Source: an uncultured Gammaproteobacteria bacterium (GTDB taxonomy: Bacteria; Patescibacteriota; Microgenomatia; Daviesbacterales; UBA10151). Taken from it: DNA of 64,000 nucleotides. The notes under the pieces were generated by a model, which saw only the letters and a program-made list of their open reading frames with translations, did no database searches and had not been told where the DNA came from. The stretch covers positions 13,585-77,584 of the forward strand of contig CAZAZW010000003.1 in NCBI GenBank assembly GCA_964489875.1, read 5' to 3'. Each line of letters begins with the position of its first letter. Within the stretch, counting starts at the first letter, position 1. Positions 5,549-53,331 of the stretch are shown here, piece after piece. A program made the position numbers and the translations under genes.

Positions 5549-5568
5549 AACTGTTCTCAATTAAGCTT

Positions 5569-5643
5569 GTCATTGCGAGACCACAAAGTGGCGAAGCAAT
5601 CTTCTATGGATTGGAGAGATCGCCACTAACCCTTCGCGATGAC
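5569..5643. repeat. 75-bp GTCATT...ATGAC nested-palindrome element, intergenic copy
   Basis: gtcattgcgagaccacaaagtggcgaagcaatcttctatggattggagagatcgccactaacccttcgcgatgac. Terminal inverted repeats plus internal hairpins. Confidence 0.75.
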
Positions 5644-5693
5644 GATTTGAATAATAGTAATTATTATCACAGAAAAAATCAGTAGCTAGGATT

Positions 5694-6299: not shown

Positions 6300-8580
<2,281 letters not shown>

Positions 8581-8581
<1 letters not shown>

Positions 8582-10119
8582 TACTTCTTGCCTCCTTTTC
8601 CGCTCTTACTAAACATCCCTACAAATTCTTTAGTCACTTTTTCCAACTGCTTAGCCATACCATCATCCAGTTCTTTTTTATCTGCCACCTCAGACATCAG
8701 CTTCTTTTCCCGAAGCTTTAAGTGGGCCACATATTTTTCCTCAAATTCTTTTACTCTCTCTACTTCCACATTATCCAAATATCCATTTGTGACAGCCCAA
8801 AGCACCACTACTTGTTCCGAGAGTGCAACAGGGGAGAAGGGAGGTTGTTTCAAAACTTCGGTGACTCTTTTACCTCTTTCAATCTGCGCCTTTGTGGCCG
8901 GATCTAAATCCGAAGAAAACTGGGCAAAAGCCTGCAAAGCCCTAAATTGTGCTAAATCCAAGCGCAATTTTCCTGCCACTGACTTCATGGCTTTAGTTTG
9001 CGCGGCACCGCCCACCCGGGAAACGGATAAACCAACATTAATAGCCGGCCTGATTCCGGCAAAAAAGAGATCCCCCTCCAAATATATTTGTCCGTCAGTA
9101 ATGGAGATAACATTTGTGGGAATATAAGCGGAAACATCACCGGCTTGTGTTTCAATAATCGGCAGGGCCGTCAGTGAACCACCGCCAAAATCTTTAGAGA
9201 GCTTTGCCGCCCGCTCCAGGAGTCTTGAATGAAGGTAAAAAACATCACCTGGATAAGCTTCACGGCCGGAGGGTCGGCGAAGAAGTAAAGAGACTTGCCT
9301 ATATGCCCAGGCATGCTTGGATAAATCATCATAAATAATCAAAGCGTCTTTCCCTTGATCCATAAAATATTCACCCATGGCGCAACCGGCGTATGGAGCT
9401 AAATATTGCATCGTAGCTGAGTCAGAAGCAGAAGCGGAAACTACGATGGTATGATCCATGGCTCCCAGCTCTTCCAGTCTGGCCACAATTTGCGCAACTT
9501 TAGATGTTTTTTGTCCGATTGCCACATAAATACAGATGACATCTTTTTGGTTAATAATAGTATCTATAGCGATGGTGGTTTTACCTGTACTTCTGTCACC
9601 AATAATCAACTCCCGCTGGCCACGACCAACTGGAATCATGGCATCAATGGCTTTAATACCGGTCTGCAGGGGAGTATTAACCCCTTGCCTGGTGATAACT
9701 CCGGGAGCAATCTTTTCCACCGGGTAGTGATCTTTGGCTTTAATAGGGCCCTTGCCGTCAATCGGACTTCCCAGCGCATCAACCACCCGGCCAACCAAAG
9801 CCTCGCCAACAGGCACCTGTAAAATTTGACCGGTAGTTTTAACTTCGTCGCCTTCTTTAACCTTGGTAAAATCTCCAAAGATGACAGCTCCCACATTGTA
9901 TTGCTCCAAATTTAGTGCTAACCCGTAAACTTCTTTTCCAAAATCCAACAATTCCGAATATTTAACATCTGATAACCCTTCGATCCTGGCTACCCCGTCA
10001 CCGATTTCAGTAACTATACCCATATTTTGTTTTTGGGCTTTTAATTTTAAACCTTTAATCTGGTTTTCTATATCAGCTATAAGCGAAGCTTGCGAGCTAC
10101 CGCTCTTTAAATCAGCCAC
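8581..10119 (-). CDS. atpA: F1 ATP synthase alpha subunit
   Basis: 512 aa. [18 protein letters not shown]. Confidence 0.97.
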
Positions 10120-40421: not shown

Positions 40422-41330
40422 TTATCTACCTAGTCTCAAATACCAATCAATAATTTCCCGACCCCAAAAAAGCATGATTAAACTTCCCAACACTAAAAAG
40501 GGTCCAAAAGGGATAGTTTGACCAAAATGCTTTTTACCAACAGCAATAAGTCCTACTGAAAATATAGCACCTGTTAAAAATGATAAGACTAAAGCAAATA
40601 GCGCTTGCGGAAATCCCAGCATTATCCCTATAAATGCCCCCAGCTTAACATCCCCTCCGCCCATCCCTTTTCCACGGGTTATAATTATTAAACCCATAAA
40701 AAACCCACCTATTATTAAGGCTGTTAATATTGAACCAAAAAGGGGCTGGGCAGCTGCCAAAGCATGCCTTTGAAAATAATCACTTTGTGGAGGAAGAAGT
40801 TTTTGACCTACAAGAGTTTGAGATAAGGAGTAGTAAAGATATCCTATCTTATATAAAGTAATTGCCAATAGGAAAGAGGCCCCAATCCAAATAGCCGGAA
40901 TCACCACTCTATCCGGAATAAACATCTTTTTTAGGTCTGTCAAAAAAAGTATAGCCAAAACTGTTATGAAGAAAAGTTTATAAACAAGATCCGATAAAAG
41001 AATTGATAACTGAAAAACAGATTGCCACGTCGCTTCGCTCCTCGCAATGACAGCCGAGGTCTGCCAAAATAAAAACCCTATTAACACTCCCATTCCCACT
41101 TCCACTAATAGATATCCGATACCGATCTTCTTGTGGCAATATCTGCACTTTCCCCGAAGTATCAAAAAAGAGAAAATAGGGAAAAGGTCGTACCATGCCA
41201 GCTTGTGCCGGCATTTTGGACAGTACGACCTTCCCCAAAAAGATTTCTTACCTAAACTTCGGTCAGCGAGCGCCTTAACCAAGCTTCCCAAAACCATACC
41301 AATTAAAAACCCCGCTGACCCCCAAATCAT
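40422..41330 (-). CDS. pilD: Prepilin peptidase / N-methyltransferase
   Basis: CPKCRHKL..CRYCHKKI zinc motif, multi-TM body, GGGDVKL. The track start 41342 is GTG; an ATG lies at 41330. Confidence 0.88.
   Translation of the reverse strand: MIWGSAGFLIGMVLGSLVKALADRSLGKKSFWGRSYCPKCRHKLAWYDLFPIFSFLILRGKCRYCHKKIGIGYLLVEVGMGVLIGFLFWQTSAVIARSEATWQSVFQLSILLSDLVYKLFFITVLAILFLTDLKKMFIPDRVVIPAIWIGASFLLAITLYKIGYLYYSLSQTLVGQKLLPPQSDYFQRHALAAAQPLFGSILTALIIGGFFMGLIIITRGKGMGGGDVKLGAFIGIMLGFPQALFALVLSFLTGAIFSVGLIAVGKKHFGQTIPFGPFLVLGSLIMLFWGREIIDWYLRLGR
41019..41051. repeat. 33-bp half-copy of the GTCATTGCGA-type element inside pilD
   Basis: agattgccacgtcgcttcgctcctcgcaatgac. It matches the right half of the murC copy and encodes VIARSEATWQS. 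Confidence 0.7.
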
Positions 41331-41331
41331 A

Positions 41332-41880
41332 TTAATAAGCACAACTTATGCCATCAGGAGAAATCAAAGTTAGATCAGAACCGACCTCATATAGGGCCGG
41401 ATCATCACCACCATCTTTTCCTGCTTTATCAGACTGTTGTTGAGATTCCAAAGCCGTATTAATCTCCCAACCAATACCATCAGAACAATAAGTGTAATGG
41501 TTCGCTGTAGTATTGAGTTGGTCAACAGGCAAAGTTGGAACCGACACACTTTTCTGAGCAGACATATTGACTTTCACCCAACCTGTCCCATCCGAAGCTC
41601 TGACACCCGTACCACCAGCATTACTATTCCCAGGACATGGTACTGTACCACCCACACAAAGAATGTCAGACGCAGAACCGGTTGCTTCTTGGACTGCTAC
41701 ATTAATTGCTTGTTGCAAGTTAGCTAGATCAGAGAGTCTCGCCGCATCCCTACCTCTTCGAGTAAGCTCCAATGGATTAATGATTAAAACAACAACCGCT
41801 GCCAAAATGGCAATAATAGCGATAACTACTAAAAGTTCAACCAGGGTAAAACCCATTCGAACTTGAGCAGATTTTTTCAA
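41332..41880 (-). CDS. Type IV pilin (candidate major pilin), TTG start
   Basis: (TTG)KKSAQVRMG followed by FTLVELLVVIAIIAIL. GGGGGTGAGGA lies just upstream of the TTG. Confidence 0.8.
   Translation of the reverse strand: MKKSAQVRMGFTLVELLVVIAIIAILAAVVVLIINPLELTRRGRDAARLSDLANLQQAINVAVQEATGSASDILCVGGTVPCPGNSNAGGTGVRASDGTGWVKVNMSAQKSVSVPTLPVDQLNTTANHYTYCSDGIGWEINTALESQQQSDKAGKDGGDDPALYEVGSDLTLISPDGISCAY

Positions 41881-46597: not shown

Positions 46598-46616
<19 letters not shown>
45963..46616 (+). CDS. holB: DNA polymerase III delta-prime-like subunit, short form
   Basis: 217 aa. VVVLEDASPLTIEAQNALLKTLEELPEEATLILGA and ILSRCRVI. Confidence 0.75.
46031..46051. repeat. 21-nt hairpin TTCCCACT-TGACG-AGTGGGAA inside holB (the exact reverse complement occurs at 56541..56561)
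   Basis: ttcccacttgacgagtgggaa, encoding SHLTSGN. Confidence 0.85.
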
Positions 46617-48758
<2,142 letters not shown>

Positions 48759-49374: not shown

Positions 49375-50856
49375 ATGGCTACAAAAGTACATTTTTTGGG
49401 TATTGGAGGCTCAGGCGCTTCAGGGGCAGCGGCTATTACGGAGGCTCAAGGCTTTGAGATCACCGGCTGTGACCTGGAACCCAACAATGAATTTACCACT
49501 ATTTTCAAACCAGACCAACTCCTCGTTGGACATTCCCCAGATCACATATTCCGTCATTGCGATCCGGCGAAGCCGGAGAAGCAATCTAGTTTGGAAGATA
49601 ACCCTACCAAGATTGCTTCGTCGCCTACGGCTCCTCGCAATGACGATGAGAATAACCATAACGATAGAACAATAGATATTCTGGCAGTCACTCCGGCCAT
49701 TTTTTCTTTAGACCCCAGTAACCCTGAACTTTTGGCAGCCAAAGAAAAAGGCATACCAGTAATTACCTGGCAACAATTTGTTGGTCAGTATCTGACCAAA
49801 GACAAATTTGTCATTGCCATTTGCGGCACCCACGGCAAAACCACTACCACAGCCATTATTGGCCAGTTATTAGAAGATGCCGGGATGGACCCGACAGTAC
49901 TTCTTGGAGCCATCGTCCCCAAATGGGGCACAAACTATCGCATACCTCGACAAAAAGTTCACGATCGTGAATATTTTGTCATAGAGGCAGACGAGTTTAA
50001 TGATAACTTTCTACCTACCAAACCTGATATTGCAGTAGTCACTAATATCGAAATGGACCACCCGGAATATTTTAAAGACTTTGAGACGGTTAAAGATAGC
50101 TTTAAAAGGTTTTTACTACAAACCAAACAAGCTGTGGTAGCTAACATGACTGACCCAGGAGTAGCTGAAGTTATGAAAGTAGTGATGAAAACGCCACATC
50201 AAATTTCCTCCGGCCGTGGGATATTTGAAACATATTTAGATTATTCCAGGAATGAACTGGGCATAAACTTACAGGTCCCCGGGGAATTTAATCGGTTAAA
50301 TGCCAAAGCTGCCATGGCGGTAGGGCTCTTGCTGGGAATAAAACCAGACACTATTAAAAAAAGTCTGGCAAACTTTACAGGAGCAAGCAGAAGGTTTGAA
50401 TATATCGGAGAATTTAATGGTGCAAAAGTTTATTCTGATTTTGGCCACCATCCGACGGAAATCGAAAAAACTATGGAAGCAGTTAGAGAAAAGTTTCCTA
50501 AGGAACGAATTTTACTGGTTTACCAACCACATATGTTTTCCAGAACCAAGGCTCTATTTAATGATTTTGTAAAAGTATTCCAAGATATTGCGGCTGATAA
50601 GCAAAGCTTGAAATTCTCGCAACGCTCGAATTTTAAAACTTTTATCCTGGATATTTACGCATCAAGGGAAGTGGATACTGGCTTAGTAACCAGCAAACAG
50701 CTTGTAGAAACCATTAACAAACCATCCGTATCATACCTGGGAGCTGTCCCAGGTTCCCTGGAAAAAATTAAGCCGGAAATTAAATCAGGGGATATTGTCT
50801 TTTTTATGAGCGCCGGAGATACTGATAAATTAGCTAAAGAACTAGTGGATTCCTAA
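49375..50856 (+). CDS. murC: UDP-N-acetylmuramate--L-alanine ligase
   Basis: VHFLGIGGSGASGAA, ICGTHGKTTTTAIIG, and a Mur ligase C-terminal domain. Confidence 0.9.
   Translation: MATKVHFLGIGGSGASGAAAITEAQGFEITGCDLEPNNEFTTIFKPDQLLVGHSPDHIFRHCDPAKPEKQSSLEDNPTKIASSPTAPRNDDENNHNDRTIDILAVTPAIFSLDPSNPELLAAKEKGIPVITWQQFVGQYLTKDKFVIAICGTHGKTTTTAIIGQLLEDAGMDPTVLLGAIVPKWGTNYRIPRQKVHDREYFVIEADEFNDNFLPTKPDIAVVTNIEMDHPEYFKDFETVKDSFKRFLLQTKQAVVANMTDPGVAEVMKVVMKTPHQISSGRGIFETYLDYSRNELGINLQVPGEFNRLNAKAAMAVGLLLGIKPDTIKKSLANFTGASRRFEYIGEFNGAKVYSDFGHHPTEIEKTMEAVREKFPKERILLVYQPHMFSRTKALFNDFVKVFQDIAADKQSLKFSQRSNFKTFILDIYASREVDTGLVTSKQLVETINKPSVSYLGAVPGSLEKIKPEIKSGDIVFFMSAGDTDKLAKELVDS
49553..49644. repeat. 92-bp GTCATTGCGA...TCGCAATGAC element inside murC
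   Basis: Perfect 10-bp terminal inverted repeat, inner agcaatct/agattgct inverted repeat, and a ccgg-cgaag-ccgg hairpin. Confidence 0.8.
50211..50232. repeat. 22-nt exact repeat inside murC (other copy at 6125..6146)
   Basis: cggccgtgggatatttgaaaca, encoding SGRGIFET. Confidence 0.8.
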
Positions 50857-53331
50857 CTTTTTAACCCAATCCTTAAACTGGTTTCCCCGATCTTCATAAT
50901 CCTTAAATAAATTAAAACTGGTTGAAGCAGGGGAAAGGAGGCAAATTTTTCCTGACTTAGTTTGCGCAAAAGCAATTTTTACAGCTTTTCCCATATCCGA
51001 AACATCAAACTTCTTGGGCAGTTTCTTGGAATATTTACAAACGGAATTCCAGATTTTTATTCCCGTATCCGGGAAGAGTATTAAAGTTTTAATATTAGAT
51101 TTTGCAATAGCCTCTCCCAGAAAGGAATAATTCAAACCTCGATCAAATCCACCGGCAATTAAAGTTTCCACATTTTCACCCAAAGCAGTCAGTGCCGCTG
51201 CAGTGGCTTGAGGGATAGTAGAAAGCGAATCATTATAGAACCTGATACCTTGAGCTTCTGTTACAAATTCTAATCTATGCGGCAAAGGCTTAAAATTGAT
51301 AATTGCTTCTTCAATTCTATTGTCTGCCACTTTAAATAATCTGCCCACAACTATGGCAGGTACCACATTTAATAAATTAAAATCTCCCAAAAGAGGAATT
51401 GTATCTTTGTGAATTAAATCCAAAACCATTTGCCTGTTCTTTTTGGAAAAGGAGATTTTGTTGGCTTTACTTTCCTCAGCAATCACTCTCAGCTCAGGAA
51501 TTTCTTGATTATAAATTAAATAATCTTCCTTCGTTTGAAACTTGGTGATATTATTTTTTGCCCTGATATAAAAAGGAAAATCTTTGTGATGATCTAGATG
51601 CTCAGGATAAATATTAGTCATTACGCCGATATGGGGACTTCTTTCTAAATCTTCTAATTGAAAAGAGGATAGTTCATAAACCACCACTGATTTTTCATTT
51701 AACTGATCCAATAAATCCAAAGCCGGCTTGCCAATATTACCAATTAAATGAACATCTATTCCACCATTTTTCAATACTTCATATATCAAAGAGGCAGTCG
51801 TGCTTTTACCCTTAGTACCGGTTACCCCGATAATTTTCCCTTTAAAATTATCAAAGAAAATCTGTGTAGCAGAGGTAATAATTTTGCCTTGCCTTTTTGC
51901 TTGTTCTATCTCCGGCAGATAGGGAATACCGGGGGATTTTATGATGACATCATAATCTTTTAACTTTTCTAAATAATTCTCTCCATCATTTTTATCAGAG
52001 ATATCAATTTTCTTGCCCGGAAAATGCTTTTCAAAAAACTTTAGAGTTGCTTTACCTTCTCTGCCAAAACCTAAAATCAAAATTTTTTGGAAATATTGTA
52101 AAACTGTGGGGATTTTCTGTTTATCTTTTTTAGCTCTTTCAATCCCTAAAGAAATGGCAGTTTTTATTTCCAGAGCAGTAGCTACACACTCAAATGGTTT
52201 AACTTCATTATTTTCACGAAGCAATCCACGAACCAGTGATATCAAGCTCTCGTCTTCCAGTAGATTCTTACCAAATATTTTCTTAAGTTTGCTTCCCAAA
52301 AAGGGATAGAGCAAAAGATAAGTGGAAACACACTTCGGGCACTTACCACACCATATTCCTTGTTTTGAGCCTTTGTTACAGCTTCTAAATAACTTATGAT
52401 ATTTCTCCATCTTTGAGAACTTTTCACTTATTTGCAATTCACCAAAATTTCTTAAGAAGCTAAAGTAATTGGCAGAGGAAGACAGATAATTCTTAGAGTA
52501 ATCCCTAAAATCCTGCTCAAATTCTGAGGTCTTGGAATATTGGTGATTAATTTCCTGGCCAAGCCAGTCCACATTTCCTTCATTAGAGGAGACTTCATTG
52601 GAAACCACTAGATTTTTGTAATCATATAAGACTCCGGCAAAGGTGGATAGGAAAGCAAGGTATGCAGAAAAAGGGGTGTGGCCGTTCAAATAACCTTGCT
52701 TATTAAGCTCCAGCAACTTGGGGTCTATTATCCTTTTTATTATGATCGGATTTTTACAACCTCCAACTTCTGCAATTTTGATTGCCGCTTCAGTCGGATT
52801 TAAGATTAGACAGTTGAACTCTTTCCCTTTTTGACTGATAGATTCCAGTGTTACAACCGAATCTTTACCACCTCCAATTAAAACCAAATCCCGGTCTTTC
52901 AAGCTGCCATCATATTTAGCTTGCAACCTTTCAGGTTGCCGCACAAACTCAACAATATTTTCTTCAGTAAAATCTATTTTGTTGTTGTAGAAAAATTCTC
53001 CCAAACCTTTTATTAACAGATTCTTCCAAAAGGCAATTTGATTATCACCTAGGGAGCCTGCTTTAATAACAATTTGCGGAGGGCAAGCTACTTTCCAATA
53101 ACTCAATAACTCAATCATGCCCAAATTAAATACCAGATTTTGCAGGACTTCCGGGCCAATTTCATCAAGCCTCTCCATTGAAACATTAGGCAGTATAACT
53201 TCCGGGTTGAATTTAATATCAGGAGCAAGAAGAAAATCAAAAATTATCTTTAAATTTCCCTGCCCAAGCTCAGTTTCATAGCCTTTATAGATAAACCGGC
53301 TATGTTTTTTCCTCAATTCATTAAAATTCAT
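50842..53331 (-). CDS. murD: Fusion protein: N-terminal PP-loop-like domain (about aa 1-415) + UDP-MurNAc-L-Ala--glutamate ligase MurD (about aa 415-829)
   Basis: N-terminal part: LIGGGKDSVVTLE and CGKCPKC. C-terminal part: ILILGFGREGKA and GVTGTKGKSTTASL, with a Mur ligase fold. Confidence 0.8.
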   Translation of the reverse strand: MNFNELRKKHSRFIYKGYETELGQGNLKIIFDFLLAPDIKFNPEVILPNVSMERLDEIGPEVLQNLVFNLGMIELLSYWKVACPPQIVIKAGSLGDNQIAFWKNLLIKGLGEFFYNNKIDFTEENIVEFVRQPERLQAKYDGSLKDRDLVLIGGGKDSVVTLESISQKGKEFNCLILNPTEAAIKIAEVGGCKNPIIIKRIIDPKLLELNKQGYLNGHTPFSAYLAFLSTFAGVLYDYKNLVVSNEVSSNEGNVDWLGQEINHQYSKTSEFEQDFRDYSKNYLSSSANYFSFLRNFGELQISEKFSKMEKYHKLFRSCNKGSKQGIWCGKCPKCVSTYLLLYPFLGSKLKKIFGKNLLEDESLISLVRGLLRENNEVKPFECVATALEIKTAISLGIERAKKDKQKIPTVLQYFQKILILGFGREGKATLKFFEKHFPGKKIDISDKNDGENYLEKLKDYDVIIKSPGIPYLPEIEQAKRQGKIITSATQIFFDNFKGKIIGVTGTKGKSTTASLIYEVLKNGGIDVHLIGNIGKPALDLLDQLNEKSVVVYELSSFQLEDLERSPHIGVMTNIYPEHLDHHKDFPFYIRAKNNITKFQTKEDYLIYNQEIPELRVIAEESKANKISFSKKNRQMVLDLIHKDTIPLLGDFNLLNVVPAIVVGRLFKVADNRIEEAIINFKPLPHRLEFVTEAQGIRFYNDSLSTIPQATAAALTALGENVETLIAGGFDRGLNYSFLGEAIAKSNIKTLILFPDTGIKIWNSVCKYSKKLPKKFDVSDMGKAVKIAFAQTKSGKICLLSPASTSFNLFKDYEDRGNQFKDWVKKLGIH
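52915..52947. repeat. 33-nt hairpin element inside the murD-fusion ORF
   Basis: tttagcttgcaacctttcaggttgccgcacaaa, encoding VRQPERLQAK on the gene strand. Confidence 0.8.

Follow-up and report, generated by a model that had tools for sequence, protein, structure and literature searches.

An in-frame palindromic repeat in murC of a Candidatus Daviesbacteria genome is probably a selfish CGTC-tagged element tolerated in a surface loop

In this study, we analyze a window of 64,000 nucleotides, that is, the whole stretch of DNA under consideration (GenBank assembly GCA_964489875.1, contig CAZAZW010000003.1, positions 13,585 to 77,584), in which the murC gene carries a palindromic element inside its coding sequence. 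The closest homologues of the gene product are the MurC proteins of Candidatus Daviesbacteria (Patescibacteria, or candidate phyla radiation, CPR), the best non-self match being 76% identical, and the host is a tiny groundwater-type bacterium of this group. The element is an imperfect palindrome of 94 bp (CGTCATTGCGA…TCGCAATGACG, 49552-49645) that lies in frame in murC. We consider it, with a probability of about 80%, to be a non-autonomous selfish palindromic repeat, made of two inverted CGTC-tagged units resembling repetitive extragenic palindromes (REPs), which inserted into murC where the gene encodes a surface loop.

An initial annotation of this DNA had described a perfect 10-bp terminal inverted repeat within murC, and its coordinates hold: GTCATTGCGA at 49553-49562 is matched at all ten positions by TCGCAATGAC at 49635-49644, and the flanking C and G lengthen the repeat to 49552-49645. 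The inner pair, AGCAATCT (49579-49586) complementary to AGATTGCT (49610-49617), and the CCGG-CGAAG-CCGG hairpin also stand where that annotation had placed them. In its DNA context the element reads ...cac ata ttc CGTCATTGCGATCCGGCGAAGCCGGAGAAGCAATCTAGTTTGGAAGATAACCCTACCAAGATTGCTTCGTCGCCTACGGCTCCTCGCAATGACG at gag..., with the CGTC tag at both ends, at 49552-49555 and, on the opposite strand, at 49642-49645. The two arms are unlike in their interiors, which makes the element a heterodimer. On its own, the perfect 10/10 inverted repeat is not beyond chance, as 18 such pairs occur in the window at spacers of 3-100 nt against a shuffle mean of 11.4 and a maximum of 29. That the element is real follows from the nested second repeat, the z-score of its fold, the excess of the terminal 10-mer and the match to a very large family. 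An inverted-repeat search delimited arms of 43 nt, 74% complementary, around a spacer of 8 nt. The single strand folds at -48 kcal/mol, compared with -24.65 +/- 3.25 kcal/mol for shuffled sequences (z -7.18; 0 of 200 shuffles equalled it), and the predicted structure is a four-way junction. The terminal 10-mer has seven matches in the window at one mismatch or fewer, where 2.29 are expected, and none of 100 shuffles reached seven. Moreover, both arms were recovered (E 3.9e-9 and 3.4e-4) by a hidden Markov model of 169 arms taken from other genomes. At a permissive threshold, a search of Rfam with the murC copy gave only sub-threshold matches to microRNA-like hairpins.

Compared with the insert-free members of an alignment of 120 MurC orthologues, the MurC of the window has 40 additional residues (60-99). 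The insert-free forms read GH.P.HLE-N-VDILAVTPAIF (e.g. proteins P0004, P0009, and P0010), and the DNA of the empty allele in the orthologous locus L121 is cat ctg gaa aac gta gat atc; the insert amounts to 120 nt, a multiple of three, and its frame is open throughout. The translation of the open reading frame (ORF), ...LVGHSPDHIF-RHCDPAKPEKQSSLEDNPTKIASSPTAPRNDDENNHNDRT-IDILAVTPAIF..., agrees with the initial annotation, which had placed a peptide insert including ENNHNDRT between these two flanks. The element itself translates as RHCDPAKPEKQSSLEDNPTKIASSPTAPRNDD, and the G at 49645 together with the tail outside the palindrome (49646-49671) codes for D-ENNHNDRT. That canonical MurC is short at this site, as had also been proposed, is borne out by the HLE-N-VDIL orthologues as well as by the solved MurC structures (PDB matches down to E 5e-62), which align to residues 4-41 and 100-490 and leave about 36 residues unmatched. 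An AlphaFold2 model of MurC from 47 sequences (mean predicted local distance difference test score, pLDDT, 83.6; predicted template modelling score 0.84) shows residues 65-95 as coil with pLDDT <50, between a helix at 55-59 and a strand at 102-105. As modelled, the insert would form a disordered, hydrophilic surface loop of the N-terminal domain and leave the ligase fold undisturbed. Since the frame is open and the loop appears disordered and tolerated, the insert is most likely translated within MurC.

The same position in murC has received other insertions. In loci L124 and L125, a repeat of a different family (TGTC-ATCCT...AGGAT-CTC ... GAG-ATTCT...AGAAT-GACA) follows the same H-L-Y/F codon, and orthologues P0060, P0064, and P0105 carry this family too, as judged by the peptide CHPERSEG...DSSLITQNDK. 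The murC site of locus L122 (L122:3166-3355) holds three left ends and two right ends, that is, nested copies, accompanied by a short hairpin, TCCCACatcggaaGTGGGA (= SHIGSG), and murC codons 58-68 in L123 hold a short hairpin alone, TGCAACCTgaaAGGTTAC (= CNLKGY). Short hairpin-like inserts of this kind are coded in many MurC orthologues (SHIGSGN, CNLKGYRTN and similar) and may be leftovers, targets, or a small repeat family of their own. Because orthologues have a different family or nested copies there, we regard the murC site as a recurrent insertion spot. Such a hot spot can be read in two ways: either new copies prefer sites that are already occupied, or this is the sole loop in which insertions survive selection.

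The murC element belongs to a family, here referred to as ATTGC-type, that extends over many phyla. With the exact termini GTCATTGCGA-N45-75-TCGCAATGAC as the pattern and one genome scanned per species, at least 120 genome loci were found. The matches listed include Bradyrhizobium, sphingomonads, Mucilaginibacter, Pedobacter, Flavobacterium, Nitrospirota, Chloroflexi, Planctomycetota, cyanobacteria (Nostoc, Microcoleus), Deltaproteobacteria, and several Patescibacteria, and among them 126 copies have one modular build in common. Its left half is [C/T]GTC-ATTGC-GAG-[small hairpin]-GAA-GCAAT-CC(AG)-[variable centre], and its right half (CT)GG-ATTGC-TTC-[small hairpin]-CTC-GCAAT-GAC[G/A]. The stem of each arm consists of 5 bp (ATTGC/GCAAT). 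Over 225 arms, the interior measures 7-30 nt, mostly 12 or 18; it starts with GAG in 208 and ends in GAA (171), GCG (23) or GTG (20). The arm tail is CCA in 115 of these, followed by CTC (40), CCC (17), CTT (15), CGC (14), and CTA (9); the two murC arms have CTA and CTT, the ATTGC-type copies of the window CTA, CTT or CTG, and the arms of a copy in atpG, described below, CCA. The commonest interiors are GAG-CG[A/C/T/G]AGC-GAA, i.e. a GCGNAGC unit, which was reported by Hirao and co-workers to fold into a DNA mini-hairpin of unusual stability that has GNA as its loop. Where the interior is longer, it consists of other hairpins, e.g. GCCCCAAAGGGGC and CCCACCTCCTTGCAGGTGGG. As the lengths are too unequal to align, pairing in the variable hairpins was judged by fold-versus-shuffle statistics, in which 86 unique interiors had a mean minimum free energy of -4.27 kcal/mol against -2.13 kcal/mol for shuffles. 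GTC is preceded by C in 65-70% of 125 copies and by T in 28-29%, and besides a YY preceding GTC the flanks gave no target-site consensus; for 116 of the 125 copies there was no flanking direct repeat indicative of a target-site duplication. Nine loci with canonical copies, searched against Rfam at the gathering threshold, yielded only a tRNA. A full-text literature search with the DNA strings of the element gave only primer coincidences or nothing, and the same was true of the encoded peptides.

Copies of the ATTGC-type family lie in frame in genes of other genomes as well, encoding GuaA (GMP synthase), UvrA, a Patescibacteria transglycosylase resembling penicillin-binding proteins, and a Wzy-like protein. 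On each strand, the stop codons of the conserved modules are confined to one of the three frames, and in long ORFs the copies are read only in the two frames that avoid the terminal TGA (...RND and ...LAMT). The UvrA and transglycosylase hosts echo the repair and cell-wall targets given for CGTC-tagged REPs by Di Nocera, De Gregorio & Rocco (2013).

Within the window, a generic scan (GTCA[TC], a 5-nt AT-initial stem, its complement, then C) found nine arms in the 64 kb, arranged as four dimers plus a singleton; 100 shuffles gave a mean of 1.57 and a maximum of 5. Housekeeping genes (murC, atpG, gyrB, and pilD) contain four of these five elements in frame, and the fifth is intergenic (Table 1). 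The recurrences noticed in the initial annotation are among them: the one in pilD is a single arm at 41020-41052 in this prepilin-peptidase gene, and the one at 5569, which had been taken for a left end, proved to be more than that, namely a whole 75-nt copy (5569-5643) with a degenerate right arm. The copies outside murC have TGTC or CGTC tags. With its ATTCCCGCGCAGGCGGGAAT core and CCA tails, the atpG copy is a textbook REP dimer of the CGTC-1 family. Its peptide falls in an alignment gap relative to the solved ATP synthase gamma chain 9itj_G, and the signature VIP..GI...DSRLRGND resembles the CGTC-1 entries of Rickettsia conorii, VIPAKAGI...DSRFRGND (Rickettsia palindromic element 6, RPE-6; PMC3733652 Additional file 3). 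The gyrB insert lies in a variable C-terminal loop, where the GyrB of L125 is insert-free and other Daviesbacteria have different inserts. No T-run terminator was seen after the murC copy or the intergenic copy (5568-5644), and an nhmmer profile of 169 arms, run against the window and five Daviesbacteria loci, gave no ATTGC-type copies beyond those of the pattern searches.

Several observations bear on the mobility of the family. Variable hairpins are common to the copies of one genome (L017, L027, L118, and L040/L064). At least 120 viral stretches of IMG/VR match the termini pattern, with 145 copies in 1.1 Mb; genes for portal, terminase, protease, baseplate, and tail-fibre proteins are present on both phage contigs of Table 1 (L169 and L173), whose copies lie between structural genes, directly downstream of ORFs. 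Plasmids of Methylosinus, Methylocystis, Aulosira, and Novosphingobium bear full copies, in Novosphingobium at no fewer than 40 places of a single replicon. Prophages of Helicobacter contain arms too, including one that is in frame within a Mu-like transposase. Moreover, the 35-nt left arm of murC, with its unusual GCGAT and CCGGCGAAGCCGG hairpin, is identical in five to six low-GC metagenome contigs, three of which come from one groundwater sample; samples of Hainich H51 groundwater are a source of identical arms. There it has other flanks and stands alone or is paired with different right arms, and the single arm therefore looks like the multiplying unit. The genes between paired copies encode portal, other structural or housekeeping proteins and no mobiliser; HUH plus Y motifs occur in none of 190 small ORFs beside copies in 240 loci, and there is no transposase family among the 25 most frequent of the 115 Pfam families assigned to 150 of the neighbouring small ORFs. 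The transposase that lies under a GenBank phage match is the Mu-like one, itself the host of an in-frame arm and not a candidate mobiliser.

Table 1. Coordinates of murC, of the parts of its palindromic element, and of related copies in the window and elsewhere (window positions unless a locus is named).
Feature	Position	Strand	Evidence and remarks
murC gene	49375..50856	+	ORF of 493 aa; Pfam Mur_ligase, Mur_ligase_M, Mur_ligase_C; Daviesbacteria MurC homologues; PDB MurC matches
Palindromic element CGTC...GACG	49552..49645	no strand	two inverted REP-like units as dimer, tags outward
Left arm (C)GTC-ATTGC-GAT-[CCGGCGAAGCCGG]-AGAA-GCAAT-C	49553..49586	+	generic arm scan of window
Inner hairpin CCGG-CGAAG-CCGG of left arm, with GCGAAGC mini-hairpin core inside	49564..49576	+	sequence, fold
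Variable central spacer between arms	49587..49610	no strand	centre varies across family
Right arm (C)GTC-ATTGC-GAG-[GAGCCGTAGGCGAC]-GAA-GCAAT-C	49611..49644	-	arm profile, generic arm scan
Insert-specific tail outside palindrome	49646..49671	+	comparison with empty allele in L121 and with L122, L124, L125
Intergenic ATTGC-type dimer	5568..5644	no strand	left arm canonical; right arm ATCGC/GCGAT variant; no peptide
CGTC-1-type dimer (TGTCATTCCCGCGCAGGCGGGAATCCA ... TGGATCCCGACATCCGTCGGGATGACA) in atpG (7673-8581, minus)	7936..8012	no strand	in frame
Single arm (singleton REP unit) in prepilin peptidase gene pilD (40422-41342, minus)	41020..41052	-	in frame; peptide AVIARSEATWQSV
Related dimer, ATTCTGG/CCAGAAT stems, in gyrB (46704-48758)	48446..48533	no strand	in frame
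Stretch with ATTGC-type copy in GMP synthase	L042:4073-5743		in frame
Stretch with ATTGC-type copy in UvrA	L050:1761-4490		in frame
Stretch with ATTGC-type copy in Patescibacteria transglycosylase (penicillin-binding-protein-like)	L060:7112-7999		in frame
Copies on phage contig L169	incl. 6429-6511, 8549-8631		two of three 100% identical
Copies on phage contig L173	614-703, 7885-7973, 11586-11675		three near-identical
Arm and second degenerate head in Mu-like transposase, near C-terminus	L246:3001-3036 (BK070154.1, Helicobacter prophage)		in frame; peptide ...MDCFANARNDREEESRND...

With regard to the neighbourhood of these elements, a gene of 829 aa at 50842-53331 on the minus strand, downstream of murC, appears to encode a MurL-like epimerase fused to a Mur ligase. 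Its orthologue in L121 has the Pfam domains MurL_N, MurL_epimerase_C, Mur_ligase_M, and Mur_ligase_C, and in L122 the MurL-like part and the Mur ligase part are encoded by two genes (426 and 423 aa). The start of gyrB is preceded, at a distance of about 40 nt, by a CTAG-rich, long imperfect inverted repeat (GAGTCTAGTGACTAGAGTCTAGC ... CTCTAGACTCTAGCGACTAGTCAC, 46603-46668), which is unrelated to the CGTC-type repeats and may be an operator or the terminator of the upstream gene.

If the murC element is a selfish repeat, the copy is probably tolerated and translated in the surface loop. Its survival there would be favoured by a frame that stays open, by modules that are stop-free in two of three frames per strand, and by 40 hydrophilic residues that would form a disordered loop and spare the ligase fold. 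By analogy with insertion sequences (ISs) of the IS200/IS605 type and with REPs and their REP-associated tyrosine transposases (RAYTs), spread might depend on a trans-acting enzyme that recognizes a single-stranded DNA hairpin together with the CGTC tag. Phages and plasmids would transfer the repeats from host to host, and copies in tolerant protein loops would be the ones to persist in a CPR genome dense with genes. Some points weigh against this account. No mobilising enzyme was found, so that the mechanism of transposition is drawn by analogy, and the copies of the window differ from one another, which leaves present-day activity in the host genome unproven. Translation of the insert is deduced from nothing but the open frame, and the nearest relative is only 76% identical, so that neither the time of the event nor its direction, gain or loss, is fixed. 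The IMG/VR contigs may hold host DNA, phage genes having been checked in two of them (L169 and L173). The initial annotation had taken as decisive that the gap in the orthologues should coincide with the element; in the 120-sequence alignment the left border does so, codon 60 beginning at 49552, but the right border lies 26 nt past the palindrome. The tail that accounts for these 26 nt may, from its AATGAC-like triplet repeats, consist of remnants of older right ends. Lastly, the 11-nt termini and GAAGCAATC are strongly conserved across phyla, which makes a host function possible instead of pure selfishness.

Such a function, for which we see only a slim chance, would mean that the palindrome is kept for its effect on nucleic acids (mRNA stabilization or processing, transcription pausing, or a site for gyrase or another protein) and that it regulates murC. 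The very stable fold (z -7.18), the variable inner hairpins that change sequence and keep pairing (-4.27 vs -2.13 over the 86 interiors), the REP-like position of phage copies directly downstream of ORFs, and the case made in the text of PMC3733652 that many REPs act as RNA elements would all fit, as would the conserved termini. However, close orthologues lack the element or have a different family at the site, so that no conserved requirement in murC is visible, and copy number and location vary as they do for mobile DNA. Neither the murC copy nor the nine loci searched gave an Rfam match for the element, no T-run terminator follows the copies, and recognition of the hairpin by a transposase would equally predict the structural constraint. 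The initial annotation had implied an insertion resembling a miniature inverted-repeat transposable element (MITE), and this stands insofar as the palindrome is in frame in murC and belongs to a dispersed multi-copy family. A classical MITE, that is, an internally deleted IS with terminal inverted repeats (TIRs) moved by the DDE transposase of its parent, is nevertheless highly improbable: the perfect TIR of 10-11 bp, the small size, and the multiple copies would agree with it, but the target-site duplication is absent in 116 of 125 copies, single arms exist and proliferate alone, no IS with CGTCATTGCGAG ends and no transposase adjoining the copies was found, and the build is that of two REP-like hairpins and not of TIRs around an IS remnant.

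We give still less credence to the idea that the insert escapes translation by ribosome bypass or RNA processing, in the manner of the yeast mitochondrial 'byp' elements or the hop in T4 gene 60. A strong hairpin within the coding sequence of an essential gene might call for it; yet bypass needs neither an open frame nor a length divisible by three, and the 120-nt insert has both, the frame being open also in the atpG, gyrB, and pilD copies and in all insert-bearing MurC orthologues, and the long ORFs containing copies elsewhere use only the two stop-free frames. As 10-bp perfect inverted repeats at such spacing are not rarer than expected (18 vs 11.4), one might finally suspect that the inverted repeat is fortuitous and lies in a variable loop peculiar to the lineage, or that it is an assembly artefact. 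This we regard as already refuted by the family scan with its at least 120 loci, by the profile from other genomes that matches both murC arms, and by the identical 35-nt arm in independent metagenomes; moreover, independent assemblies have related elements at the same murC site.

It is conceivable that the ATTGC-type element and CGTC-type repeats in general form a pan-bacterial family that is carried on phages and plasmids, is moved by a novel enzyme, persists in gene-dense CPR genomes mainly within coding sequences and re-enters the same tolerant loops, a proposal that we make tentatively and consider doubtful as a whole. If true, these repeats would continually supply essential enzymes with new, lineage-specific protein loops, with murC and gyrB as hot spots and with nested or replaced copies. 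Protein-coding palindromes have so far been treated as a Rickettsia curiosity. Here, one 64-kb stretch of a CPR genome has repeats in four housekeeping genes, and the ends of one family are kept from Bradyrhizobium to cyanobacteria, Patescibacteria, and tailed phages. This offers material for two questions, namely what moves CGTC-type repeats and what share they have in the odd insertions of proteins from reduced genomes. It also carries a warning for annotation, in that metagenomic peptides of the form RHCE...PRND or VIP..GI...DSRLRGND are repeat-derived.

In-frame palindromic repeats in housekeeping genes are already known as the Rickettsia RPEs and as CGTC- and GTAG-tagged REPs, according to the texts of PMC3733652 and PMC10969869. 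The closest counterpart is the superfamily of CGTC-tagged REPs, divided into families CGTC-1 to CGTC-4 (Di Nocera, De Gregorio & Rocco, 2013, BMC Genomics 14:522; PMC3733652). As described in the text of that paper, the repeats have a CGTC tag (variants TGTC and CCTC), an AT-initial stem of 8-9 bp, a loop of 4-5 nt and a CCA tail; they occur mostly as inverted dimers in many phyla, most often in Alphaproteobacteria, have in-frame intragenic copies, with repair, replication, and cell-wall genes among the hosts, and have no dedicated transposase. The murC-type element shares with them the unpaired CGTC or TGTC tag, the AT-initial stem, the inverted pairing, the spread over many phyla, the in-frame intragenic copies and the lack of a transposase adjoining the copies. 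The CCA tail is present in 115 of the 225 ATTGC-type arms but in neither arm of the murC copy. The element differs in its stem of 5 bp, followed by an internal loop (GAG on one side and GAA, GTG or GCG on the other) and a variable inner hairpin, so that the continuous 8-9 bp stem and 4-5 nt loop of families 1-4 are not found in ATTGC-type arms. Moreover, the ATTGC string and the peptide signatures RHCE..EAI, VIAS.AKQS, ..LLR.ARND, and ..DCFA.LAMT are absent from the text and intragenic list of PMC3733652, Figure 2 aside, and the hosts reported in these parts of the paper do not include Patescibacteria or phage genomes.

The superfamily also takes in the Rickettsia elements RPE-4 (CGTC-4) and RPE-6 (CGTC-1) and the Neisseria repeat dRS3 (CGTC-1), as stated in the text of PMC3733652. 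RPEs are in-frame palindromes in unrelated housekeeping genes (Ogata et al., 2000, 2002, as given in the texts of PMC10969869 and PMC3733652), and a 2024 review of MITEs treats in-frame RPE insertion as a Rickettsia speciality and calls a similar process elsewhere "conceivable" (PMC10969869). A literature search for RPE-like elements in Patescibacteria or CPR bacteria found no paper linking the two. The window resembles the RPE case in its reduced small genome and in the inserts that lie in frame where the fold tolerates them (murC, atpG, and gyrB). In contrast, the host here is a free-living or epibiotic CPR bacterium and not an intracellular alphaproteobacterium, and the murC element is of a different sequence family; RPE-1, at about 150 bp, is unrelated in sequence, and by peptide signature the atpG peptide resembles the RPE-6 entries whereas the murC peptide does not. 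The dRS3 repeats agree in the layout of tag, AT-initial stem, and tail, and their ATTCCC-N8-GGGAAT core is that of the atpG copy. These Neisseria repeats are best known for serving filamentous prophages and IS110-type recombinases as integration targets.

A further comparison is with REPINs, in which two inverted REPs form one long hairpin that is moved by RAYT (TnpA-REP) transposases (Bertels & Rainey, 2011; PMC3116915). Two inverted hairpins, populations of copies per genome, the lack of target-site duplication and a 4-nt tag beside the hairpin foot, a candidate cleavage signal, are common to both. The tag is CGTC or TGTC here and not GTAG (GT[AG]G), no RAYT or other Y1/HUH gene lies beside the copies (190 small ORFs, 240 loci), and REPINs and RAYTs are lineage-specific and vertically inherited, unlike the ATTGC-type family with its near-identical ends across phyla and in phages. 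Because its stem and loop differ and its signatures are absent from the text and intragenic list of PMC3733652, Figure 2 aside, we file the murC element as a variant outside CGTC-1 to CGTC-4: it is, by the same parts of that paper, a CGTC-type REP of a new sequence variant. It may overlap with a Bradyrhizobium subset of CGTC-1 that has other loops. As a system it is of a known kind, and nothing hints at a special role in MurC chemistry; the novelty lies in the sequence of the variant, in its occurrence in phages and in a CPR genome, in how densely essential genes are populated with in-frame copies, and in the reuse of one loop of murC.

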